The notes: a model not told the origin generated them from the sequence alone. Counted from the stretch's first letter, positions 4,586 through 41,129 are shown. The stretch: 46,108 bases of DNA from an uncultured Bacilli bacterium (GCA_934086255.1 CAKOIB010000001.1:1-46108), one strand, 5' to 3'. A program made the numbers and translations.

Positions 4586-5647
4586 ATGCTAGATATTAAC
4601 AATCAACTACATATACTATTTATAGTACTAACATGCTTAATAATAACATTAGCAATAACATTCTATATTAAAAAAATAGCTATTCACATCGGAGCAATGG
4701 ATATTCCTAATAAAAGAAAAGTACATACAAAACCAATGCCAAGACTCGGAGGATTAGGCATATTTCTAGGTTTTCTATTTGGATACATGTTGTTCGGAGT
4801 CCAAAGCATCCAAATGAACTCAATACTAATAGGAAGTTTTATTATAGTTTTAACTGGAGTAATAGATGACATAAAACCATTAGATGCAAAAACAAAATTA
4901 ATTGGACAAATAATAGCAGCATGTATAGTAATTTTCTATGGAAACATTCTATTAAACAAGGTAACATTATTTGGATTATACATAAACTTTGGTATCTTTT
5001 CATATCCATTAACAGTCTTATTTATACTAGGATGTATAAATATAATAAATCTAATTGATGGCTTAGACGGACTATCAAGTGGAACATGTGCGATATTTTA
5101 CTTAACAATAGGAATAATAGCCTTTATTAAAGGAACAATGGGAGCACTAAACATAACACTAGCATTTATCATGTTAGGTTCTACCCTAGGATTCTTGTAT
5201 CACAATTTTTATCCAGCAAAGATATTTTCTGGAGATTCTGGTTCCATGTTTCAAGGCTTCATGATCGCAGTAATATCCTTATTAGGATTCAAAACTGCTA
5301 CAATGATTTCCCTATTTGTTCCATTATTAATTCTAGGAATACCAATCTTAGACACATTATTTGCAATTATAAGAAGAAGTTTAAAACATCAACCTATATA
5401 TATGCCAGATAAATGTCATTTGCATCATCAACTATTAAGCTTAGGATTATCGCATAGAAATACAGTATTAGCAATATATGCAATGAATATACTATTTGCC
5501 ATAGCATCAATCATATATATAATTAAAGATAAAAAAATAGGTATCTATGTTTATATAACAATATTAGCACTAATAGCATGGATAATACTTAGAACAGGAA
5601 TAATATCAGATAAAAATAAACATACGGTTAACAAAGAGAAAAAATAA
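4586..5647 (+). CDS. tagO: Glycosyltransferase family 4 undecaprenyl-phosphate HexNAc-1-phosphate transferase (TagO/WecA-like)
   Basis: Polytopic protein with PRLGGLGIF, VIDDIKPL, NLIDGLDGL, GDSGSMFQG and HLHHQL motifs of the MraY/WecA family. Confidence 0.85.
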   Translation: MLDINNQLHILFIVLTCLIITLAITFYIKKIAIHIGAMDIPNKRKVHTKPMPRLGGLGIFLGFLFGYMLFGVQSIQMNSILIGSFIIVLTGVIDDIKPLDAKTKLIGQIIAACIVIFYGNILLNKVTLFGLYINFGIFSYPLTVLFILGCINIINLIDGLDGLSSGTCAIFYLTIGIIAFIKGTMGALNITLAFIMLGSTLGFLYHNFYPAKIFSGDSGSMFQGFMIAVISLLGFKTATMISLFVPLLILGIPILDTLFAIIRRSLKHQPIYMPDKCHLHHQLLSLGLSHRNTVLAIYAMNILFAIASIIYIIKDKKIGIYVYITILALIAWIILRTGIISDKNKHTVNKEKK

Positions 5648-5667
5648 CAATTTTCTCTTTTCTTTTT
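5635..5667 (+). terminator. Rho-independent terminator after tagO
   Basis: agagaaaa (5635-5642) / ttttctct (5651-5658), then tttcttttt. Confidence 0.6.
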
Positions 5668-5693
5668 GCCTGCAAAGTGTTAGAATAATATCG

Positions 5694-5789
5694 AAAAAAG
5701 GAAAAAAATACCAAAAAAAGCAAAAAAAATGAAAAAAAATGAAGAAATTTCAAAAATTGCGCGAAAGATGTTTTAAACTATGTTATATT
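5694..5789 (+). promoter_or_regulatory. Helically phased A-tract array (curved DNA / UP-like) plus candidate extended -10 promoter for the island operon
   Basis: A5-A8 tracts start at 5694, 5702, 5713, 5722, 5732 and 5752, about 10 bp apart. TTGCGC lies at 5757-5762. TGtTATATT at 5781-5789 and TATGTT at 5779-5784 are candidate -10 elements, and the exact promoter geometry is ambiguous. Confidence 0.45.
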
Positions 5790-5805
5790 GGAGATGTGGT
5801 TGTTT

Positions 5806-6414
5806 ATGAAAGAATTTTTAAAATGGTTAGGTGTTAATGAAAAAATTGCGAAATTAGCAATATGGTTATTTGTAATTATGGTATTTCTAATAATAACTAA
5901 TGCATTATTGGATAGTATTGGATTGCCGTATTATAAAATAACTGCAGACAACCTAGTTAAAATTAACACAAACAAGGTGGTAGACTACATATCAGCAACA
6001 TTATTGACATTATTAAATTTCTATAGTGTTGTGTTCCTAGTATTTAGGTTAAGTGAATTCAAGAAAATATTGCCTTATTCAATATTGTATTTAATAGGAA
6101 ACATTATAATTAATACATTCTTTGGTTATATATGGGCTCAATTATTTATAATAGTTTTTAACGTTATATTTTTCTATATGTATTCAAACAAAAATATCAA
6201 ATACTTGTTGTATTGCTTACTTTCTATAGGGATAAACGTTGTACTGCAATATGTTTGGTATTTGACAAAAGCACAATTTATTAATTTAAATGAACATACG
6301 GGGACATCATATGCAGTGTTGGGCTTAGATTTCTTTATATTCATGACAATGATAATCGCCACAAAAGAAATATATGTTAAAAAAAGGAGCGAAAAAAATG
6401 AAACCACCAGTTAG
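5806..6414 (+). CDS. Polytopic (~6 TM) membrane protein, unknown function; first gene of agr-like island
   Basis: Long hydrophobic ORF with about six TM segments by eye. ATG 5806 is preferred over the track's TTG 5788, which overlaps the putative -10/SD region, but the start is uncertain. No homology recognised. Confidence 0.55.
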   Translation: MKEFLKWLGVNEKIAKLAIWLFVIMVFLIITNALLDSIGLPYYKITADNLVKINTNKVVDYISATLLTLLNFYSVVFLVFRLSEFKKILPYSILYLIGNIIINTFFGYIWAQLFIIVFNVIFFYMYSNKNIKYLLYCLLSIGINVVLQYVWYLTKAQFINLNEHTGTSYAVLGLDFFIFMTMIIATKEIYVKKRSEKNETTS

Positions 6415-6487
6415 TTTATTTTGGTTAGGACAATTCGACAAAGAAAGTAACTTTGCCAAAAAAATAGCTAAGAAATTAGCTAAATAA
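6398..6487 (+). CDS. Un-called 29-aa cationic amphipathic peptide (MKPPVSLFWLGQFDKESNFAKKIAKKLAK); candidate signalling/toxin precursor
   Basis: ATG 6398 is preceded by AAGGAG (6384-6389) at an 8-nt spacing. The ORF overlaps the upstream gene's end by 17 nt, and its TAA stop at 6485-6487 is followed 6 nt later by a perfect 13-bp hairpin. It is too short for the ORF track. Confidence 0.45.
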   Translation: MKPPVSLFWLGQFDKESNFAKKIAKKLAK

Positions 6488-6493
6488 TTAAAA

Positions 6494-6528
6494 GTAAATA
6501 ATAGTAAATGGGTCCTACTATTATTTAC
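6494..6528 (+). promoter_or_regulatory. Perfect 13-bp inverted repeat (stem-loop/attenuator or operator) between the peptide ORF and the AgrB-like gene
   Basis: gtaaataatagta (6494-6506) / tactattatttac (6516-6528) with 9-nt loop aatgggtcc. An A-run, not a U-tract, follows on the + strand. Confidence 0.6.
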
Positions 6529-6557
6529 AAAAATAATCCATGTAAGGGGGCAGTAAT

Positions 6558-7004
6558 ATGAAAGAAAAAGAAAAAAAGAATGCTAGAAAAAGAAAAAATG
6601 GAATTTGGTTTAATGACACTGCTACAATAGAAAACTTCTCACAAGTAACAGCGTCCAAGTTAGAAAAAATAATTGAAAATGTTATATTTTATGGAATTAC
6701 AATACCAATGCAGTTATTTCAAACACTAGGAGTCTTCGCAATTGCATGTTTCAATGATGCATTTGCAGAACTATCGTTCTTCTTAATAGGTTTTTTCTTC
6801 ACAAGAAGCTTTTTAGGAGAAACATTTCATTTAAATTCAACAATAACATGTACAACATTTACTTGGACATTATTTTTCTTGATAACATGGTTAATCCCTA
6901 GTATATACATAAGTGTTTTCCTATGTGTACTTATGGGAGTTATGTTATCAATATACATGCATTATATAGTAGTAAAGGAAGATGAGGTATGCCAAAGAGA
7001 TTAG
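6558..7004 (+). CDS. Short (148 aa, ~4 TM) membrane protein with AgrB-like R-x4-G-x3-H-x6-C motif; putative peptide-processing protease
   Basis: SD AAGGGGG about 8 nt before the ATG. FFFTRSFLGETFHLNSTITCTTFT has His91 and Cys98 seven residues apart between TM segments, like the AgrB catalytic H77/C84 and the family pattern R..aGG.H......C. It is shorter than typical AgrB (~190 aa). Confidence 0.45.
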   Translation: MKEKEKKNARKRKNGIWFNDTATIENFSQVTASKLEKIIENVIFYGITIPMQLFQTLGVFAIACFNDAFAELSFFLIGFFFTRSFLGETFHLNSTITCTTFTWTLFFLITWLIPSIYISVFLCVLMGVMLSIYMHYIVVKEDEVCQRD

Positions 7005-7240
7005 GATTAGGAACATTACTTTTAAAAAAATCGCGCCATGAATTAGAAGAATTATGTGACAAAAAAGGGTTAACTGGATTTGAAAAAGAAATTATAATAA
7101 GGATTTATTGGCAACACCAAAATTTAACGTTTATAGCAGATACCATGGATTTTCAAAAATATGGCAAGAAACACAAACACTATTCAGTTAGAAGCATAAA
7201 TACTTTCCATAAACAAGCATTTCTAAAAATAATCAAATAG
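6989..7240 (+). CDS. Small sigma-70 region-4-like / HTH protein (83 aa)
   Basis: Overlaps the upstream gene by 16 nt. SD AAGGAAG 7 nt before the ATG. LTGFEKEIIIRIYWQHQNLTFIADTM...YSVRSINTFHKQAFLKI follows the region-4 helix-turn-helix pattern, with an insertion before the recognition helix. Confidence 0.5.
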   Translation: MPKRLGLGTLLLKKSRHELEELCDKKGLTGFEKEIIIRIYWQHQNLTFIADTMDFQKYGKKHKHYSVRSINTFHKQAFLKIIK

Positions 7241-7303
7241 CAACAAAGCTATCATGATTTTAAAAAAAATAAAAAAATAAAAATATTTAATCAGGAGAGA
7301 GTT

Positions 7304-8041
7304 ATGGACTTCATTATTTTAAGTAGTAGTAATCAAGGTCTAAAGGGGTATGAAGGTGTGATCAGCGAATCATTACTTGATTCAAAATTAGAATATCATA
7401 GTTATAAATTCGATGATATTAATAATATGAAAGAGTATGTAGCAAAAAATAAAACAAAAAAAATTTATATAATTGAAAATAATTCACTAATTGATGCAGA
7501 ATTAATCGTTGATTATATAAGAAAGGAAATAAATGATTATCAGTCATATATTATTATCATTAACTTTGATGATAATTTTAAATTAATGAGACATAATGTA
7601 ATGACAACTATATTAGAAAGCAGCAATATATCAACAAATTTAGTAACTACAATTAAAGAGTTGAATAATGTATATTTGCAAGACACTAGTATGTTTTGGT
7701 TCAAACAAAATGGAGTGCTATTTTTGGTGCCGCTTTCTGATATTGTTTGTATAGAAAAATTACAAAATTCAAAATATACTCAAATTATATGCAAAAATAG
7801 AAAATACATAATAAAAGAAACATTAAATCATATAATGACAAAACTTAATAAAAACTTCATAATGGTTCATCGAAGTGTTTTTGTTAACATAAAAGAAATA
7901 AAAACATATGACCATGTTAATGGAATAATAAGTTTCACAAATCATTATCAAACAAGTATGATTTCAAGGGATAAAAAGAAGGAATTATTAAAAGTTCTTA
8001 CCGAACAAGACATAATTTCTACCAAACAAGGTACAAAATAA
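7304..8041 (+). CDS. LytTR-family DNA-binding regulator with degenerate (pseudo-)receiver domain (AgrA-like architecture)
   Basis: SD CAGGAGAGAG. The C-terminal ~100 aa (LVPLSDIVCIEK...FIMVHRSVFVNIKEIKTYD...ISFTN...ISRDKKKEL) fits LytTR. The N-terminal ~125 aa has receiver-like beta-alpha periodicity, but the acidic pocket reads SSS and the phospho-acceptor position reads Glu (IYIIEN). Confidence 0.7.
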   Translation: MDFIILSSSNQGLKGYEGVISESLLDSKLEYHSYKFDDINNMKEYVAKNKTKKIYIIENNSLIDAELIVDYIRKEINDYQSYIIIINFDDNFKLMRHNVMTTILESSNISTNLVTTIKELNNVYLQDTSMFWFKQNGVLFLVPLSDIVCIEKLQNSKYTQIICKNRKYIIKETLNHIMTKLNKNFIMVHRSVFVNIKEIKTYDHVNGIISFTNHYQTSMISRDKKKELLKVLTEQDIISTKQGTK

Positions 8042-8142
8042 AAAATAAATCATATTTGTGATACTATTAAATTGCACACATAAGATAACAGATTCATAAA
8101 AAAAATAGCAGTAAAAATAGTAGGGAAAAAGAGGTGAAATAA

Positions 8143-8364
8143 GTGACAGGTTTTGTAAAGTGGTTTAACAATGAAAAAGGATTTGGTTTTATTGACTACA
8201 AACCTAACGAAGACGTATTTGTTCATTATTCTGCTATTAAAATGGAAGGATATAAAACTCTAAACGAGGGTGACTATGTTACATTCCAAATGGTAGAAAC
8301 AGGTAAAGGACTTCAAGCAATCAACGTAATGGTGATAAAACAAAAAGAACTAATGGCTGTATAA
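8143..8364 (+). CDS. Cold-shock protein (CspA family)
   Basis: GTG start 7 nt after [23 protein letters not shown] (RNP1) and VFVHYSAI (RNP2). Long 5' UTR from a TGtGATACT extended -10 near 8057-8065. Confidence 0.9.
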
Positions 8365-9153: not shown

Positions 9154-10386
9154 ATGGAAAATAATGAAATAATGGGTAATGAAATAGTAAGCTTTGAAAA
9201 AAATAAAAAGAAAAGTAAATTACTATTAATATTACTATCGGTAGTAATATTATTGATAGTAGGAGCAGTAATAATCTACTTCTACATCAATAGCAATCCA
9301 TTACTAGCAATAAAGTACAATGCAAATAAACTAACAGAAAATATAACAGAACAAATAGAAAAACAAGAAAAAATAAAAAAAATATCAGGTAATTTAGAAA
9401 TTGACTATAACATTGAATCGACTGATAAAACATTAAAAGAAATGATTGATGCCTTTAATGGTCTATCAGTGATTGCCAACTACAAAATGGATACAGAAAA
9501 TAAAATATTACAAACAGAATTAAAAACAACATATAAAAATGAAAAATTAATTGATGCAAATATCTACATGCAAGACAAAAAAAGTTTTGTACAACTACCT
9601 GGAGTATTTGATAAGTATATAAATGTTGATTTATCTGAAAAATATGATGATATATTTAATACATCAAAAAATACCAAAGAAAGCAAAATAATTGTTAAAA
9701 GCGTTAATAAAGCATTTCAAAAATCTCTAAAAAAAGAATACTTAACTTCAGAAAACAAAACAATTACAATTGATGATAAAAAGACAAAAACAACAAAAAT
9801 ATCAATGGAATTAAATGATAAAAAACTAGCAAAAATATCAAAAGACTTTTTAACATATCTAAAAGATGATCAAGAATTCATTAAAGCAACCAACTCTATA
9901 TCAGAAACTAAAAACACAAAAGAAGAAATAGAAGGCTTAATTGATGAAATATCATTCGATAATCAAAGCGGAACTACTATGACAGTGTCTATCTATTGTA
10001 AGGGAATTTTAAAAGAAGTAGTTAGATATGAAGTAGAATTAAAACAAGATGAAGAAACCTATAATATAGCGGTCACAAAACACAAAGATAAATATGACTT
10101 TAAAATAAAACAAGAAGATGCAATAATATCTAAAGGAACTATTATAAAAGATAAAGAAAAAATCTCAATTGAAGCATCACTTATTGGATTAGGAAATGCT
10201 ACAATAAACATAACAAATAAGGAAGAAAAAAATCCAACAATAAATAAAAAAGAAATAAAAGATTCAGTAAAATATGAAGACTTAACAGAAAAACAAATGC
10301 AAGATATTGCAACAAAGCTATTACAAAATAAAGGATTTGAGAAGTTATCAACAATTTTTGAATCATTAATGCCACAAAGTTATTAA
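9154..10386 (+). CDS. Membrane-anchored (N-terminal TM) extracytoplasmic protein, unknown function
   Basis: SD AGAGGAG. Single TM (LLLILLSVVILLIVGAVIIYFYI), then a 360-aa Lys/Glu/Thr-rich ectodomain. No motif recognised. Confidence 0.6.
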   Translation: MENNEIMGNEIVSFEKNKKKSKLLLILLSVVILLIVGAVIIYFYINSNPLLAIKYNANKLTENITEQIEKQEKIKKISGNLEIDYNIESTDKTLKEMIDAFNGLSVIANYKMDTENKILQTELKTTYKNEKLIDANIYMQDKKSFVQLPGVFDKYINVDLSEKYDDIFNTSKNTKESKIIVKSVNKAFQKSLKKEYLTSENKTITIDDKKTKTTKISMELNDKKLAKISKDFLTYLKDDQEFIKATNSISETKNTKEEIEGLIDEISFDNQSGTTMTVSIYCKGILKEVVRYEVELKQDEETYNIAVTKHKDKYDFKIKQEDAIISKGTIIKDKEKISIEASLIGLGNATINITNKEEKNPTINKKEIKDSVKYEDLTEKQMQDIATKLLQNKGFEKLSTIFESLMPQSY

Positions 10387-15363: not shown

Positions 15364-15402
15364 GATAGATAGTTTTAAAAATCACAAAAATACGAAAATA
15401 AT

Positions 15403-15430
15403 TGACAAAAACGACAAAAAGTGCTATAAT
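15403..15430 (+). promoter_or_regulatory. Near-consensus SigA promoter (TTGACA-16-TGcTATAAT)
   Basis: TTGACA 15403-15408 and TGCTATAAT 15422-15430. The track ORF start at 15402 lies inside this promoter. Confidence 0.7.
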
Positions 15431-15461
15431 AATGCCAATCCAAGTTGAAGGGGGAAATAAT

Positions 15462-17330
15462 ATGGATAATAAGTTTTATTTAGACAAAGAATTAAGAAAC
15501 GCAACAAAGTTTGGATACAAAGGAAAAATATATGAATTAAAAAGTCCAAAAGACATTGGAGAAATACTAATATCTTTAGGAGAAACATCTGCAATTTATA
15601 AGTTTATGGAAGCAAACGATAACAAACAAGTAGTAATTGGCGAATCATACTTTAAAAAAGAAGAAAAAGATTCAAAAATTGAAAACATGAAAGTTTATAA
15701 AAACAATATCAAAAATGCTAAAAAGAATCTAAAACTTAAAATAACAGCAGGAATCTTAACAATGGCAATCGCTGCATCAGCACTTATTGGATGCTCAACT
15801 AGGGAACAAAAAAAAGAGCAACCAGTAACAATGGAAAACTATCAAGAAATGGATTTTGAACAACTACTTGCCCTTTTAAATGAAGGAGTACAAAGAGATT
15901 CATTTGAATTGATGGATGAAGTTCAAGATTATTTTAATAATACTGCAGCGCCAACTATTAAAGTAAAAGCTGATAAAGGTGCACAATTATACTTATTTGC
16001 TGATGAAATAACATCATTATTTACATATGCAAATGCAGATACATATTCAAGAGAAACATTCTATGAAATATTTGGTTCAACATTTGATGATTCTAGAATA
16101 ATTCAAGATTTCGAAAATGCAGGAAGAATATTAAATAATTATTATATAAGAGCAACAAATCCATCTGGTATAGATAAACTATTTCAAAATGAGAAAAATC
16201 AAGAATTATTTGCTAGTTTTGAACAATTAGTATTAAATTACAATAAAAAACCAACAAAAGCAAATAAACAAAAAATTGTTAATAAATTAGATGAAATATA
16301 TTTCAGTGGAAAAATAGATAGTTTAAAAAAGACTTGTCCAGAAGCTGTAGCATTTATAGGAACACATATGACAACAGCACTAGAAGCAAATGGAGTATTA
16401 TCAAAATCATTCGCAGATAAAGTAGTCGAAGCTAATGAAACAGTAGCATGTAACACTATAAAAGAATACGTAAAAGAAGTAGGCGAATATGCACAAGCAA
16501 GAGACTTGGTTACAGCAACAATAGAAAATTATCAAGAAATTAACTTGAGTGATAATCAAGCATTATATTACATTTCAAGTGCAATGGATAACAAAAATAT
16601 TAAAGTAAGTTCAAGAGAAATTAAAAAGATATTAAAAAATAAAAACTTAACAAATAAAGCGGTATTCAAAAAATTAAACATAAAAAATACAAAGTATACT
16701 AAAAAACAAGTTAGTAAAAAAACTGCTATAAAAGAATTCGGTAAAGAAGAAGTTAAAAAAGCAGAACAAGAAGCAGATAAAATGGATCCAATAATAACTA
16801 TTGATAATAAAGATTACTCAATAGATGATGCTAATGAAATTGAAGAAATAACAAGAGAAGCAAAACAATATGGTGTCAACTTTACAAATGATATCTATCA
16901 AGAAATGTATAGAAATAATGGTTCTTTCAATAGTGCTACATATGAAGCTAAATTAACAAATAAAGCAAACAGTTACACAGGTAAATATAAAGAAAAATAT
17001 AAAGTAGCATTATGGCAAGGTTATAGAGAAGCTGTAAGATTAGCAAAAGAACTATACGATAGTGAAAAACAATTTAGAGAAGAAGCAGAAAAAGAAATAA
17101 TTAAAGAGGAAGAAGAAATAGTAACAACTGATAGATACGTACCAAAAGATACAACAGTAGAAAATAATAATAATACAAACAATAATACAAACAACAATAC
17201 AAATAATGATAACAATAATACCAACAATGAAAACTCAACAACTGTAAAAACTGAAACTGTAAGACCGTCTGCTGATAATAATTACACATATGAAGAAGAA
17301 ACAATAGTAGACAGGGTTTATAGTAAATAA
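15462..17330 (+). CDS. Large membrane-anchored orphan protein (about 100 aa cytoplasmic, 1 TM, about 500 aa outside) with Asn/Thr low-complexity tail
   Basis: ATG 15462 follows GAAGGGGGA. TM LKITAGILTMAIAASALIGCS. No domain recognised. C-terminal NNNNTNNNTNNNTNNDNNNTNN tract. Confidence 0.6.
   Translation: MDNKFYLDKELRNATKFGYKGKIYELKSPKDIGEILISLGETSAIYKFMEANDNKQVVIGESYFKKEEKDSKIENMKVYKNNIKNAKKNLKLKITAGILTMAIAASALIGCSTREQKKEQPVTMENYQEMDFEQLLALLNEGVQRDSFELMDEVQDYFNNTAAPTIKVKADKGAQLYLFADEITSLFTYANADTYSRETFYEIFGSTFDDSRIIQDFENAGRILNNYYIRATNPSGIDKLFQNEKNQELFASFEQLVLNYNKKPTKANKQKIVNKLDEIYFSGKIDSLKKTCPEAVAFIGTHMTTALEANGVLSKSFADKVVEANETVACNTIKEYVKEVGEYAQARDLVTATIENYQEINLSDNQALYYISSAMDNKNIKVSSREIKKILKNKNLTNKAVFKKLNIKNTKYTKKQVSKKTAIKEFGKEEVKKAEQEADKMDPIITIDNKDYSIDDANEIEEITREAKQYGVNFTNDIYQEMYRNNGSFNSATYEAKLTNKANSYTGKYKEKYKVALWQGYREAVRLAKELYDSEKQFREEAEKEIIKEEEEIVTTDRYVPKDTTVENNNNTNNNTNNNTNNDNNNTNNENSTTVKTETVRPSADNNYTYEEETIVDRVYSK
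17161..17235 (+). repeat. Imperfect 12-nt in-frame repeat (aataatacaaac-like) encoding the N/T tract
   Basis: gaaaataataataatacaaacaataatacaaacaacaatacaaataatgataacaataatacc, read directly. Confidence 0.7.
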
Positions 17331-17343
17331 GGGGGATTAAATT

Positions 17344-18834
17344 ATGGGATACGAAGTAGATTATAATGAAAATAATAATAACAAACCATTAACACATTAT
17401 ATTAAAAACTTTTTAGTGGGATTTCTATTAATAGTAATATTACTTTTGTTACTAGTATGGATATTCCCAACCAATTCAACAATTCAAAAACTATTAAACA
17501 GTAATAAAGAAGAAACAAATGAGTTTTCAAATTACTTCCAAGAAAACATCAATCTACTAAAAGATGTAGCAGAATCTTACTTTACATTAGAAAGACTTCC
17601 TAAAAACGAAGGAGATAAAGTAAGAATTACACTTGGAGAAATGTTAGAAAAGAAACTTCTAATTAACTTAAGTGATGATAAAGGTAAAATGTGTAGTATT
17701 GATAACACATATGTTGAAGTAACAAAGAAAAAGACAGAATATGAAATGAAGATTTACCTTTCATGTGGTAATGATGAAGACTATGTAATAGTATACTTAG
17801 GATGTTACGATTATTGTTCTAATTACATCTGTGAAAAGAAAACAACAACTAATAAAACATCAAACAAAACTACAACAACTAGTAATAACAAACCAACACC
17901 AACAACAAAGTATTATTGTAAAGTAGTAAAAAATAAATACTATGACAATAAAGGAAATGTTGTGACAAAATCAGCATATGAAAAAGCATGTAAGAACACA
18001 CCACCAACAACAAAACATTATTGTAAAGTAGTAAATAACAAATACTATGACAATAAAGGAAATGTGGTAACAAAAACAGCATATGAAAAAGCATGCAAAA
18101 AATATCAATATTTATATGAAAAGAAAGTTGAAGCAGTATATAGTAATTGGTCAGATTGGTCAAAAGATAAAGAATATGATCCAAACAATAACAATATTGT
18201 CTGGGGAAAACAAGAACTAGTATGGAATGAAAAATATGGTTATGCAGATATAACAAAAAACAAAAAACAATATAGAAATGATACAACAAGACCAATATTT
18301 GGAAAAGAAGAATTAGTTAAGACATCACTAACATCTAAGAGATGGACTTGTAAAAATTATTACTACTATATAAATCAAACAACAGGAAAAACATATAAAG
18401 CAACAGACTGGAAATATCAAGGAAAGGTAACACTTGGATATGTTCCAGAAAATAGTAATACAGTAAAATATGAATATGTTGGATTTGACTTTGATGCCTG
18501 TGCATCTAACTGTACACTAAAACCAATGTATATATTCAAAAAATATACAAGAAGTGCAACAGTATCATCAACATCTAAGAAAACACTTGAAGCAGAATGT
18601 AGCGAATTAGTGGAAAAAGAAGTTCCAATTTATACAACAGTATCAAGAATAATTGGTTATGAACAAAAAACTGTTACAGTAAAAACAACTCAAAGAATAT
18701 ATTATTATCATACAAAAACAAGAACACTTAAATCAAAAGCACAAACTTATAAAGTATGGTCTAACTCATCAAATGATAAAAACTTAATTAAACAAGGATA
18801 CAAGTATACTGGAACAAAACAAGAAATAAAATAA
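17344..18834 (+). CDS. Membrane-anchored Cys-rich orphan protein (496 aa), unknown function
   Basis: SD GGGGGA. ATG lies 13 nt after the upstream stop (operon). TM FLVGFLLIVILLLLLVWIF. Ectodomain has many Cys/Tyr/Lys/Thr residues and a tandem 30-35-aa repeat. Confidence 0.6.
   Translation: MGYEVDYNENNNNKPLTHYIKNFLVGFLLIVILLLLLVWIFPTNSTIQKLLNSNKEETNEFSNYFQENINLLKDVAESYFTLERLPKNEGDKVRITLGEMLEKKLLINLSDDKGKMCSIDNTYVEVTKKKTEYEMKIYLSCGNDEDYVIVYLGCYDYCSNYICEKKTTTNKTSNKTTTTSNNKPTPTTKYYCKVVKNKYYDNKGNVVTKSAYEKACKNTPPTTKHYCKVVNNKYYDNKGNVVTKTAYEKACKKYQYLYEKKVEAVYSNWSDWSKDKEYDPNNNNIVWGKQELVWNEKYGYADITKNKKQYRNDTTRPIFGKEELVKTSLTSKRWTCKNYYYYINQTTGKTYKATDWKYQGKVTLGYVPENSNTVKYEYVGFDFDACASNCTLKPMYIFKKYTRSATVSSTSKKTLEAECSELVEKEVPIYTTVSRIIGYEQKTVTVKTTQRIYYYHTKTRTLKSKAQTYKVWSNSSNDKNLIKQGYKYTGTKQEIK
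17908..18102 (+). repeat. Tandem coding repeat, 2 units (K[YH]YCKVV.NKYYDNKGNVVTK.AYEKACK)
   Basis: Unit 1 at 17908-18012 and unit 2 at 18013-18102, nearly identical at the DNA level (tattgtaaagtagtaaa...tactatgacaataaaggaaatgt...gcatatgaaaaagcatg). Confidence 0.85.
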
Positions 18835-20800: not shown

Positions 20801-20900
20801 AAAAGCAACAAAAATATTGCAATATTCAAAAAAGTTTGATATACTATACAAGAATTAATTATTACTATGACTTAAATGTCATGGCGGAAGGAGATGCAAA

Positions 20901-38333: not shown

Positions 38334-38572
38334 TGCTATAATATAAACATATTTCATAAATCAATGACGAAGAGGAGTAAATTACTAAGTATTAAAGAGA
38401 GGTAGTGTAAGCTGAAAACTACTATACAAAGTAATCGAAGGTAGCTTCTGAGTAATTATTTGAAATTAGTAGAATAATTCGTACTTATGCGTTAAATAAG
38501 AATAAGGTAATATTATATTACAAAATAAGGTGGTACCACGAACATTTCGTCCTTTGGATGAGATGTTTTTTA
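38334..38572 (+). promoter_or_regulatory. Extended -10 promoter (TGcTATAAT 38334-38342) plus T-box riboswitch leader (valine) with terminator
   Basis: AGTA (38376-38379), AGAGA (38396-38400) and T-box core GGTGGTACCACG (38529-38540). Terminator aacatttcgtcc (38541-38552) / ggatgagatgtt (38556-38567) plus T-run. Candidate specifier is GUA at 38441-38443, within GAAGGUAGC. Confidence 0.8.
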
Positions 38573-38594
38573 ATTAAAAAAGGAAGTGTTTAAA

Positions 38595-41129
38595 ATGTTA
38601 GACAAAAAATACAATCATAAACAAGTAGAAGAATCAAAATATGAAACATGGTTAAAAAATGACTACTTTAAAAGCGGAGACTTAACTAAAGAACCATTCT
38701 GTATTGTAATACCTCCACCAAATGTAACAGGAAAATTACACCTTGGACATGCTTGGGATACGACAATACAAGACATTCTAATAAGATATAAAAGAATGCA
38801 AGGATATGACGCTTTATGGCTACCAGGAATGGATCATGCTGGAATAGCAACTCAAGCCAAAGTAGATAAAAAACTAAAAGAACAAGGAATAAATCCAAGA
38901 GAAATGGATAGGGAAGAATGGCTAAAAATTGCATGGGAATGGAAAAAAGAATACGCAGAAAACATTCATGCGCAATGGGCAAAACTAGGACTATCCCTAG
39001 ATTATTCTAAAGAAAGATTTACTCTTGATGAAGGACTATCAAATGCCGTTAAAAAAGTATTCGTAGATTTATATAACAAAGGATTAATCTATCGAGGAGA
39101 AAGAATAATAAACTGGGATCCTGAAGCATTAACAGCACTATCAAATGAAGAAGTAATCTATAAAGAAACAAAAGGAGCCTTCTACCATATAAAATACTAC
39201 ATCGAAGACGAAGATAACTATCTAGAAATAGCAACAACAAGACCAGAAACACTATTCGGAGACACCGCCGTAGCGGTAAACCCAAAAGATGAAAGATATA
39301 AAAAGTACATTGGTAAAAATGTAATATTACCAATTGTAAATAAAAAAATCCCCGTAGTAGCGGACCAACATGCTGACCCAGAATTCGGAACAGGAGTCGT
39401 AAAAATAACTCCAGCTCATGACCCTAACGACTTCGCAGTTGGAGAACGTCATAATCTAGAAAGAATCGTAGTCATAAATCCAAATGGAACAATGAACAAA
39501 AATGCCCTACAATATGAAGGACTAGATAGATTCGAATGCAGAAAGCAATTAGCAAAAGACTTAAAAGAACAAAATCTTTTAATCTCAGTCGAAGAAATAA
39601 CTCATAATGTAGGATACTCAGAAAGAACAGACGTAATGGTTGAACCTTACCTATCAAAGCAATGGTTTGTAAAAATGAGACCACTCGCAGATAGAGTATT
39701 AGAAAACCAACAAAATAAACAAACAAAAGTAAACTTCGTACCAGAAAGATACGAAAAAATAATGAATCACTGGATGGAAATAACTTACGATTGGTGCATA
39801 TCAAGACAACTATGGTGGGGTCATAAAATACCAGCATGGTACAAAGACGATGAAATATATGTTGGAATAAATCCACCACAAGAATCAGGTTGGACTCAAG
39901 ATGAAGACGTACTAGATACATGGTTTTCAAGCGCTCTATGGCCTTTTTCAACACTAGGATGGCCAGAAGACACAAAAGATCTAAATAGATACTATCCAAA
40001 CAATGTCCTAGTAACAGGATATGACATCATTCCATTCTGGGTAAATAGAATGACATTCCAAGGACTAGAATTCACAGGAAAAAGACCATTCAAAGACTGT
40101 CTAATTCACGGTCTAATAAGAGACAAACAAGGAAGAAAAATGTCCAAATCATTAGGAAACGGTGTAGATCCAATGGACGTTATAGAAAAATATGGAGCAG
40201 ATTCCTTAAGATACTTCCTAACAACAAACTCATCACCAGGAATGGATTTAAGATACGATGAAGAAAAAGTAGCATCGACATGGAACTTCATAAACAAACT
40301 ATGGAATGCATCAAGATTTGTTCTAATGAACATTGAAAACTTCAAAAAAGAAGACTATACATTAGAAAACTTAACAGAAATAGATAAATGGATATTGACA
40401 AAAACTAATAAAACAATAAAAGGAAAAACAGAAAATATGGATAAATATGAGTTCAATAACGTAGGTAACACTCTATATAAATACATATGGGAAGACTTCT
40501 GTGACAACTATATAGAACTATCTAAAAACAACTTAGAAAAAAACACAACAAAAACAGTCCTACTCGAAGTCCTAACAAACATAATCAAAATGCTACATCC
40601 ATTTATGCCATACGTAACCGAAGAAATCTATCAAATGCTACCAGTAAAAGATCAAGAAAGCATTGTAATAAGCAAATATCCTACATACAATAAAGAACAA
40701 ATATATGAAACCGAAGAAAAATTAATAGACAAGCTAATCGAAGATATAACAAGCATAAGAAATCTAAAAGTAGTAAACGAAATTACAAAAGATGCTAAAA
40801 TCAAAATAAATAGTAACTATGAAGAACTATATAAATTTGCACTAAAAATAAAAGACGATCAAATAACAAAAGAACAACCAACAGATACAAAAGAATACAA
40901 CTATAAAAGTGCAAACATCGAAATAACTTTCTATCAAAAAGGAAAAGAAATTAACAAAGAATTGTTAATATCAGAAATAGAAAAACTAAAACAATCAATA
41001 GAAAAAAGAACAAAGTTACTATCAAATGAAAATTATGTAAACAAAGCACCACAAAACGTTGTAGAACTAGATAGACAAAAACTAAAAGAAGAACAAGAAA
41101 AACTACTAAGTTTAGAAAAACAATTATAA
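38595..41129 (+). CDS. valS: Valyl-tRNA synthetase
   Basis: [15 protein letters not shown] (HIGH), [19 protein letters not shown] and a C-terminal coiled coil. ATG 38595 is preferred over GTG 38586. Confidence 0.95.

Follow-up and report, generated by a model that had tools for sequence, protein, structure and literature searches.

A kinase-less agr-like cassette in uncultured gut Bacilli with a predicted leaderless peptide precursor and a candidate non-kinase receptor

Results

A five-gene cassette between tagO and csp

The sequence studied here is a stretch of 46,108 nucleotides (nt) from an uncultured Bacilli bacterium, referred to below as the window, with all coordinates counted from its first letter. 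Between a tagO-like glycosyltransferase gene (4586-5647) and csp (8143-8364) it carries five open reading frames (ORFs), all on the plus strand, which we interpret as a variant of the agr peptide-signalling locus. In order, they encode a membrane protein with six transmembrane segments (the 6-TM protein), a 29-residue peptide, an AgrB-like protein, an 83-residue protein and a regulator with a LytTR domain (Table 1). They lie where a sequence-only reading of the same DNA had placed them, and they overlap at two junctions (6398-6414 and 6989-7004). In Pfam and NCBIfam searches the AgrB-like and LytTR products scored above cut-off, and the other three products gave nothing above cut-off.

The AgrB-like gene is present in 30 related species (a scan with one genome per species), and ~20 kb was inspected in each related genome; these loci total ~490 kb, or 537 kb together with the window. 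In every locus long enough to show it the gene order is the same, running from mreB and tagO through the 6-TM, peptide, AgrB-like and 83-residue genes to the LytTR gene and csp, either of which may be missing, and then hpf. Comparison of the tagO-csp junction across relatives, a check proposed with the sequence-only reading, shows the five-gene order recurring with the LytTR gene optional. Recurrence of this gene set in one order and at one site in 30 species is far above chance. The same reading had called the block an island and asked whether it is accessory; it is a fixed core feature of the clade, between tagO and csp/hpf in all related species found. An accessory island or mobile element was ruled out on this fixed position, together with the lack of any shift in base composition, of relatives of the cassette in the phage and plasmid collections searched, and of PHROG or PADLOC matches.

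The carriers are uncultured metagenome-assembled genomes labelled Bacilli, Tenericutes, Mycoplasma sp. or Erysipelotrichaceae, with two labelled Muribaculaceae, from human, rabbit, goat and other samples, and identical copies of the locus occur in human-gut metagenome contigs, including Hadza samples. In public annotation the AgrB-like gene alone is named; NCBI and ENA records call the peptide as a gene and give it no name. Judging from the homologues found, only this clade appears to have the 6-TM protein, the peptide and the 83-residue protein. Searches of the full-text literature turned up no account of a cassette like this one, in agreement with the earlier view of the architecture as undescribed.

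Table 1. Features of the cassette, its upstream region and related loci (loci of other species are given by handle, L008 and so on; coordinates without a handle are those of the window)
Feature	Location	Strand	Remarks
6-TM membrane protein, 202 amino acids	5806..6414	+	candidate non-kinase receptor; hypervariable partner of the peptide
AgrD-like precursor, 29 amino acids, MKPPV-SLFWL-GQFDKESNFAKKIAKKLAK	6398..6487	+	26 orthologues, invariant pattern; predicted short tail and five-residue Ser-lactone ring
Hairpin between peptide and AgrB-like genes	6494..6528	+	13-bp A/T stem (6494-6506 / 6516-6528), 9-nt loop AATGGGTCC, no T-run
Compact AgrB-like peptidase/cyclase, 148 amino acids	6558..7004	+	PF04647; invariant R83/G87/H91/C98; covaries with the peptide C-tail
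83-residue helical protein	6989..7240	+	probable stand-alone sigma-region-4-like helix-turn-helix; overlaps the AgrB-like gene
AgrA/ComE-type regulator, 245 amino acids	7304..8041	+	degenerate receiver plus LytTR domain; accessory part of the module
Degenerate palindrome copy GGAAAAAAATACC (GGWAAA-n-TWWCC)	5700..5712	+	from the upstream-region alignment; one base off the pattern
Operator/promoter element	5746..5762	+	second half-site TTGCG (5757-5761) intact; first, 11 bp upstream, degenerate (5746-5752)
Extended -10, TGtTATATT	5781..5789	+	~21 nt downstream of the TTGCGC element; position conserved in the alignment; putative function
Read-through 6-TM ORFs	L008 9245-9916; L030 9208-9888; L035 9193-9885; L036 522-1190; others		
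55-residue ORF (conserved N-terminal helix and TM1 of the 6-TM protein)	L014 9814-9981; L024 1340-1507; L031 9813-9980		intact, before the AgrB-like gene
tmRNA / tRNA-Thr(GGT) region	L008 10804-11246; L014 10718-11135; L031 10719-11201; L033 4981-5395; L024 2244-3830	opposite	

A compact AgrB-like enzyme and its predicted substrate

The Pfam AgrB family matched the third product at 32.7 bits against a cut-off of 23, over profile positions 17-118 of 185, and we found at least 120 AgrB-like homologues, all of which, among the matches listed, carry PF04647. The His91/Cys98 pair (H-x6-C), Arg83 and Gly87 are invariant in 30 aligned homologues, and alignment with a phage AgrB spans the R-x-F-x-G-x-F-H-x6-C motif; in Staphylococcus aureus AgrB we take the catalytic pair to be His77 and Cys84, seven residues apart. 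Full-length AgrB has ~185-210 residues, some 40 more than the protein here, and the NCBIfam AgrB equivalog scored only 12.8 bits against a cut-off of 282. Judged by these comparisons the AgrB-like protein is a truncated, divergent subfamily. A sequence search found no solved AgrB structure.

The peptide gene has an AAGGAG Shine-Dalgarno sequence 7 nt upstream of its ATG. A short ORF with a strong ribosome-binding site lies at or over the 6-TM stop codon in 25 of the 30 related species; the remaining five loci contain runs of N, end before the region or carry the 6-TM-peptide pair elsewhere, and none of them contradicts the pattern. The resulting 26 sequences (25 species plus the window), 27-36 residues long, align without internal gaps. 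Each consists of a variable N-tail of 2-9 residues, a [Ser/Cys]-x-x-Trp-x segment, a [Gly/Pro, once Cys]-x-Phe-x-x-Glu segment and a Lys-rich amphipathic tail (FAKKIAKKLAK), and the pattern [S/C]xxWx[G/P/C]xFxxE holds in all 26. The nucleophile column has Ser in 17 peptides and Cys in nine, with AGY and TGY codons one base apart. Third codon positions hold the largest number of differences within the peptide ORF (3104; first positions 2008, second positions 1227), and more synonymous changes fall in the tail than in the ring; going by these counts, the substitution pattern is that of coding sequence. A start further upstream, at 6374, would give a 37-residue peptide; it was discarded, as both the conserved Shine-Dalgarno sequence and the start positions in relatives agree with 6398.

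In all 26 peptides the Ser/Cys nucleophile stands four residues before a conserved motif that we predict to mark the cleavage site. In known AgrB substrates the nucleophile likewise precedes the cleavage site by four residues, and AgrB cuts away the C-terminal follower and forms a ring of five residues, a thiolactone or, with Ser as the nucleophile, a lactone (PMC12312760). Because this register is a hallmark of AgrB substrates, we read the peptide as an AgrD analogue, and the earlier suggestion that it is the precursor of a processed signal is strengthened. Canonical AgrD has 40-50 residues and an amphipathic N-terminal leader of 24-25 residues (PMC12312760), whereas the amphipathic helix here is C-terminal. 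It is highly probable, on the sequence evidence, that the AgrB-like enzyme and the leaderless AgrD analogue together produce a cyclic peptide, and a second, MroQ-type N-terminal cleavage may be superfluous. If cut off by the AgrB-like enzyme, the follower (residues 11-29, window 6430-6487) would be freed in the cytoplasm as a 19-residue cationic helix; it gave weak matches, in 3 of the 26 peptides (best E-value (E) 0.048), to Cupiennin, a family of cationic amphipathic antimicrobial peptides.

In roughly half the species no stop codon closes the 6-TM ORF ahead of the peptide gene; the ORF continues through that gene in another frame and gains a Lys/Arg/Ser-rich tail. The peptide ORF therefore lies wholly inside the 3' end of the 6-TM gene in those species, compared with an overlap of only 17 nt in the window.

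The 6-TM protein and its covariation with the peptide

The AlphaFold2 model of the 6-TM protein has six long helices (mean predicted local distance difference test score, pLDDT, 78), and the distribution of lysine and arginine, 14 on one face and four on the other, predicts that both termini are inside. Sequence entropy reaches 1.7-2.2 in outer loops 3 and 5 and over the outer half of TM2, TM3, TM4 and TM6. It stays at 0.5-1.3 along the N-terminal helix, in the two short cytoplasmic loops and over the inner half of most helices; the exceptions are TM5, which is even on both halves (1.4), and the variable C-terminal tail (1.6). Conserved motifs assigned to the cytoplasmic side are KWLGVNEK at the N-terminus, FRxKEFKK, YSxKNxKY and KEIYLKKR. 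On this predicted topology the protein would turn a variable pocket outwards and a mostly conserved face inwards, as would suit a receptor that contacts a conserved cytoplasmic partner.

Relatives of the 6-TM protein form 252 database clusters, none with a Pfam domain or an informative name. A family profile run against 1.84 billion representatives gave only 35 matches, all of 227 residues or fewer, and no kinase-fused relative among those representatives. Neither Foldseek (best E 3.5) nor a sequence-profile search found a neighbour in the PDB, and hhalign against the AgrC of phage phiCDHM1 returned a probability of 0.5%, a weak test in that one AgrC was used and sensor domains diverge fast. 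A match to a phage holin family (Pfam Phage_holin_9, E 0.01, 16 bits against a cut-off of 27) was set aside as sub-threshold and lacking PHROG support.

The nucleotide sequences of six near relatives were compared with the window as reference. Identity in mreB, tagO and hpf is ~90-97% in five of them and ~80-89% in the sixth, L012. Over 5900-6415, which covers residues ~30-200 of the 6-TM protein and the first peptide codons, identity is 55-60%. It is 88% in the peptide tail and hairpin in five relatives (56% in L012), and within the AgrB-like gene of those five it rises from ~75-84% in the N-terminal half to 91-97% at the C-terminal end, with lower values in L012. At the protein level, AgrB-like matches grade continuously (92, 88, 86% and onwards), while 6-TM matches drop from 100 and 82% to 58% or less. 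L009, L010 and L011 are 99% identical in TagO and 99% in the AgrB-like protein, yet only 50-54% in the variable regions of the 6-TM protein, and their peptides differ (MNGDWGT-SFLWI, MWGGGE-SILWI and VGH-SVLWW). L011 and L013 have a common peptide type and 6-TM proteins that are 74% identical.

Partial Mantel tests over 22 species, with TagO distance controlled, linked the peptide N-tail plus ring to the 6-TM protein (r = 0.22, p = 0.0008) and the peptide C-tail to the AgrB-like protein (r = 0.36, p = 0.0004). Neither the C-tail and the 6-TM protein (r = 0.02, p = 0.40) nor the N-tail plus ring and the 83-residue protein (r = -0.04, p = 0.71) were significantly associated. It is the ring end of the peptide that varies with the 6-TM protein, and the tail that varies with the AgrB-like protein. 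In staphylococci specificity groups are defined by a hypervariable region of agr comprising agrB, agrD and agrC (PMC12312760), and by analogy the 6-TM protein here occupies the place of the AgrC sensor in that region. The AgrC-sensor-like role proposed for it in the sequence-only reading is supported by the hypervariability and the covariation with the ring end, though no homology to AgrC, HdrM or BrsM could be demonstrated. Given covariation and predicted topology, we regard it as an even call whether the 6-TM protein is the allele-specific receptor of the peptide.

The same pairing could arise from antagonism, in which a Trp-rich, hydrophobic cyclic peptide harms competitors, the 6-TM protein confers self-immunity and the regulators merely control expression. 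Toxin-immunity pairs likewise show linkage, hypervariability and covariation; against this, the locus belongs to the fixed core of the clade and is not a mobile bacteriocin island. In favour of immunity, the 6-TM protein is without a signalling domain, but its conserved cytoplasmic face has no obvious role in immunity. Similarly, the weak Cupiennin matches liken the peptide C-tail to cationic amphipathic antimicrobial peptides, but that tail is the conserved part and would be removed inside the cell, and the ring has only five residues. No locus has a transporter gene between tagO and hpf, and the peptides have no double-glycine or bacteriocin leader, their N-tails of 2-9 residues being Gly-rich in some cases and not leader-like. 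To our knowledge all characterised AgrB/AgrD products are signals, which also counts against an antagonist, and we think this explanation rather unlikely.

Two regulators and no kinase at the locus

The sequence-only reading had described an agr-like module without a kinase, and both halves of that description stand. No Pfam HisKA or HATPase domain was found in the window ORFs scanned (those of at least ~170 residues, a few of 110-155 residues being left out), tblastn with a phage AgrC found no kinase in the 537 kb, and an adjacent kinase in relatives, named beforehand as evidence against the module, was found in none of the relatives' flanks. Weak tblastn matches to the AgrC kinase domain in L020 and L008 were dismissed on reading the ORFs concerned, without a profile search, as glycosyltransferase-like and FAD-dependent-oxidoreductase-like.

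Pfam LytTR (PF04397) matched residues 139-232 of the 245-residue regulator at 58.9 bits against a cut-off of 22.6. A profile of its family aligns over the full length with the response regulator ComE (PDB 4cbv, E 9e-17) and matches structures of the AgrA LytTR domain (E 3.5e-14). In the receiver the phospho-acceptor column varies among E, N, D, T and G across the family, and strand 1 lacks its acidic pair. Because the acceptor Asp is not conserved and the acidic pair is missing, we take the protein to be a pseudo-receiver, confirming the degeneracy noted earlier. The gene is absent from the locus in 12 of the 30 species with the other genes kept; in some of these loci hpf follows directly, and in others transfer-messenger RNA (tmRNA) and tRNA-Thr genes stand in its place. 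It follows from this absence that the LytTR protein, the controlled factor in the hypothesis of the sequence-only reading, cannot be the obligatory output.

Every locus that extends far enough encodes the 83-residue protein (29 of 30; in L024 the call is shorter). It is 51-81% identical to the window copy, and in all cases its gene starts within the end of the AgrB-like gene. Its homologues form 213 database clusters, nearly all of 81-86 residues and one of 129, with no Pfam domain or informative name, and it has no sequence match in the PDB. The predicted model (mean pLDDT 87) is a bundle of five to six helices, and its best Foldseek matches, all weak (E ~1, TM-score ~0.5), are sigma region 4 (SigL, SigD, WhiG), UPF0122 and KorA. 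By eye, the motif L-x3-E-x-E-I-I-x-R-I-Y ... I-A-D-T-M ... S-V-R-S-I-N-x-F-H-K-x-A-F-x-K resembles a region-4/LuxR pattern in which ~10 residues are inserted ahead of the recognition helix. The earlier assignment as a region-4-like helix-turn-helix (HTH) is weakly backed, in that Sigma70_r4 is the commonest weak Pfam match; no Pfam match rises above cut-off. The protein cannot be a sigma factor because it has no sigma region 2, and is probably a stand-alone HTH regulator. With its presence in all loci that extend to it and its overlap with the AgrB-like gene, it makes a stronger output candidate than the LytTR protein.

It should also be considered that the cassette makes only the peptide, with the 6-TM protein as exporter or MroQ-like maturase and an AgrC-type kinase and the true regulator at another locus. 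Some clostridial agrBD loci that have no kinase are served by unlinked two-component systems, which counts in favour of such an arrangement, as does the inspection of only ~20 kb per genome. A second membrane protein, MroQ, does process AgrD in S. aureus (PMC12312760); the 6-TM protein, however, has no invariant His and no conserved His/Glu metalloprotease motif, and N-tails of 2-9 residues leave little to trim. Two regulators within the operon and the degenerate LytTR receiver speak against phosphotransfer, and a sensor encoded elsewhere seems to us unlikely.

Promoter, operator and hairpin

The upstream regions of 27 loci were aligned, and pattern occurrences were counted in 454 kb. The 27 regions have an extended -10 and, ending ~21 nt upstream of it and centred near -41, a direct repeat TTGCR-N6-TTGCR; in many loci the palindrome GGWAAA-n-TWWCC lies just upstream of the repeat. 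Of 23 occurrences of TTGCR-N6-WTGCR on both strands of the 454 kb, 22 sit 57-68 nt before a 6-TM start codon, and 18 of the 31 palindrome matches lie within 140 nt upstream of such a start, in 12 loci. Both elements are present irrespective of the LytTR gene, so the candidate binder of the repeat is the 83-residue protein or an unlinked factor. The spacers at 7240-7304 and 8041-8143 contain no LytTR-style repeats, and a generic sigma-70 promoter scan was uninformative in such A/T-rich DNA (28 sites against 24 expected).

The sequence-only reading had put forward a mechanism of the HdrRM/BrsRM type, with the 6-TM protein sequestering the LytTR protein; spelled out, the peptide would relieve this and the LytTR protein would bind direct repeats. 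Known LytTR sites have a repeat spacing of ~21 bp, unlike the 11-bp spacing here. A membrane protein and a LytTR regulator do share the operon with no kinase, and the promoter has direct repeats as in LytTR regulatory systems (PMC6193735). The LytTR gene is nevertheless missing from the 12 loci mentioned, which keep the 6-TM, peptide, AgrB-like and HTH genes and the repeats, and where present its product diverges down to 25-30% identity while the operator is unchanged. Sequestration of the LytTR protein by the 6-TM protein is pure conjecture, and we consider the mechanism as a whole very improbable.

The perfect hairpin noticed earlier after the peptide gene is real: in 300 shuffles the longest stem averaged 6.4 bp with a maximum of 11, against the 13 bp found. 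The structure is kept in 18 of 26 species, with stems of 10-14 bp that differ in sequence and a GGGCCC-like loop. No Rfam family matches at the hairpin, and an intrinsic terminator was rejected because no T-run follows the stem; a processing, stability or attenuation element is more likely. The loop (GGGCCC/GGGTCC) is G+C-rich and palindromic in DNA of 28% G+C, and the A/T stems vary by compensatory substitutions (L007-L036). A role in RNA processing or stability, in loop-loop dimerisation or in protein binding is conceivable for the hairpin.

Split cassettes and neighbouring features

In three species (L014, L024, L031) the cassette is split. One unit has a 55-residue N-terminal fragment of the 6-TM gene with the AgrB-like and 83-residue genes, and the other, relocated downstream, has the full 6-TM gene and the peptide gene. 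The fragment may be a recombination scar or a functional mini-protein. In L014 and L024, where both promoters are readable, each unit has the repeat; of the two units in L031, only the one with the full 6-TM gene gave a match. From this arrangement, peptide plus 6-TM protein and AgrB-like protein plus HTH appear to behave as two co-regulated units.

Several species without the LytTR-csp pair (L008, L014, L031, L033, L024) have tmRNA and tRNA-Thr(GGT) genes on the opposite strand directly after the 83-residue gene. In L008 the whole 6-TM-peptide-AgrB-HTH unit is duplicated, with identical copies ~2.2 kb apart flanking these RNA genes.

The window has 28% G+C, and nearly all of its genes are on the plus strand. 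Outside the cassette it is housekeeping in content, including aminoacyl-tRNA synthetases, ClpC, UvrA/UvrB, elongation factor G and an extracytoplasmic function (ECF)-type sigma factor. As a terminator for tagO, a T-run preceded by 10-bp A/T-rich inverted repeats (5633-5642 / 5651-5660) is plausible but weak, and the terminator scan did not report it. A T-box leader (38355-38557, 128 bits) precedes a class I aminoacyl-tRNA synthetase gene (38586-41129) with a Val-tRNA-synthetase-type C-terminal arm, and an L31 ribosomal-protein leader (20865-20893) scores at the gathering threshold (33.4 against 33.3 bits). Three large ORFs have no Pfam domain: 15402-17330 (642 residues), 17344-18834 (496 residues) and 9154-10386 (410 residues). 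The last, directly after hpf, encodes what looks like a single-pass membrane protein and diverges fast (70% identity where TagO has 95%).

Discussion

Agr-type signalling is textbook Gram-positive quorum sensing, and we know of no characterised case in which the peptide is sensed other than via a histidine kinase. With staphylococcal agrBDCA the cassette shares an AgrB-family enzyme that has the His/Cys dyad, a ribosomally made precursor in which Cys or Ser precedes the predicted cleavage site by four residues to give a five-residue (thio)lactone ring, and an AgrA/ComE-type LytTR regulator in the operon with repeats at the promoter. It also shares a contiguous hypervariable region of peptide and specificity partner, with pherotype-like alleles in near-identical backgrounds. 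It differs in having no AgrC kinase, a receiver without the acceptor Asp on a regulator that is dispensable in 40% of species, an AgrB-like enzyme ~40 residues shorter, the order partner-peptide-AgrB, an extra HTH protein, and a precursor that is shorter, has no 24-25-residue leader and carries its amphipathic helix in the C-tail; an RNAIII-like divergent transcript was not seen. The signal-making half of the system appears to have been kept, and the sensing half swapped for proteins without known relatives. The evolutionary signature, with pherotype-like alleles in near-identical genomes, matches that expected of a ligand-receptor pair.

AgrB and AgrD genes without a full agrCA pair at the locus are also found in Clostridium perfringens agrBD, Clostridioides difficile agr1 and the agrC-agrB-agrD locus of phage phiCDHM1, whose AgrD has a basic C-terminal tail like that of the peptide here. 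These loci differ in their canonical AgrD leaders and in having no 6-TM protein, HTH or pseudo-receiver. In phiCDHM1 (L037 26176-28932) a gene for a 62-residue 'putative sigma factor' lies ~0.5 kb from agrC, a loose architectural echo of the cassette; its product has no sequence similarity to the 83-residue protein. A large survey of gut autoinducing peptides deals with canonical two-step processing only (PMC11953309).

LytTR regulatory systems such as HdrRM and BrsRM of Streptococcus mutans resemble the cassette, as read here, in being free of phosphotransfer, in pairing a membrane protein with a regulator in an autoregulated operon, and in having repeats next to the -35 (PMC6193735). Their minimum is a LytTR regulator and a transmembrane inhibitor in one operon, with direct repeats bound by the regulator just upstream of the -35 (PMC6193735), and the cassette answers to this definition only partly: its universal regulator is not a LytTR protein, it has a built-in AgrB/AgrD signal pair, and its membrane partner is hypervariable. 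Pairs of ECF sigma factor and membrane anti-sigma factor, and GerE-type HTH regulators, also set a small region-4-like module beside a potentially inactivating membrane protein, with an operator that overlaps the -35. The 6-TM protein, however, has no recognisable anti-sigma domain and only short cytoplasmic loops, and the similarity is at a weak fold level.

Taken together, we propose the following sequence of events. The basic amphipathic C-tail would bring the leaderless AgrD analogue to the compact AgrB-like enzyme, whose His91/Cys98 pair would cut after ring residue 5 (Leu10 in the window) and close a lactone onto Ser6, or a thiolactone in Cys alleles. The product would be a short-tailed five-residue macrocycle, here approximately MKPPV-c(SLFWL), with a second N-terminal cleavage probably unneeded. 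Its allele-specific partner, most likely its receptor, would be the 6-TM protein, with the outer half diversifying along with ring and tail and the cytoplasmic face conserved. Because there is no kinase and no phosphorylatable receiver, we propose that the signal is handed on by protein contact from that face, mainly to the 83-residue sigma-4-like HTH, with the LytTR pseudo-response regulator as a further recipient in some members of the clade. Once released or activated, the regulator would act on the TTGCR-N6-TTGCR repeat near -41 to give positive autoregulation, and the hairpin after the peptide gene would probably set the ratio of 6-TM/peptide to AgrB-like/HTH transcript.

As a whole, this chain, a clade-specific chromosomal variant of agr quorum sensing with a non-kinase receptor, has in our estimation about the same chance of being right as wrong. 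Two claims within it are more tentative. The first is a phosphorylation-free signal to the 83-residue HTH, and to the LytTR protein where present, that drives autoregulation from the TTGCR repeat. The second, which we would also place somewhat short of an even chance, is that the 6-TM protein is a kinase-less autoinducing-peptide receptor which takes the peptide in its variable outer pocket and with its conserved face holds or releases the 83-residue factor, with or without the LytTR protein, in combination with a one-enzyme leaderless AgrD; this would amount to phosphorylation-independent quorum sensing with pherotypes.

Several points weigh against this interpretation. The whole chain is a computational proposal. 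None of the 26 peptides matches any AgrD model of Pfam or NCBIfam at E up to 5, and for the 6-TM protein no similarity to an AgrC sensor, or to any other protein, could be detected. Its designation as receptor draws on covariation and topology, and an immunity protein would fit the same pattern; with the ring taken alone, the association with the 6-TM protein is marginal (Mantel r = 0.11, p = 0.057). For the 83-residue family Sigma70_r4 stays sub-threshold, found as a weak match in 6 of 46 members (best E 0.0023), and the subclade to which the window belongs has a degenerate first half-site in the operator. As the search covered the loci and not whole genomes, these genomes may have an AgrC-type kinase at another place.

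If the proposal is correct, a kinase-less receptor would represent a second, phosphorylation-independent route for sensing cyclic peptides and a new kind of signal transduction. The minimal AgrB/AgrD pair (148 and 29 residues, possibly with no second protease) would be attractive for the study and engineering of (thio)lactone peptides, and the predicted peptides are short enough for synthesis. The allelic diversity described here would also be evidence of a division of uncultured gut Bacilli into signalling groups, with a bearing on strain competition in the gut.

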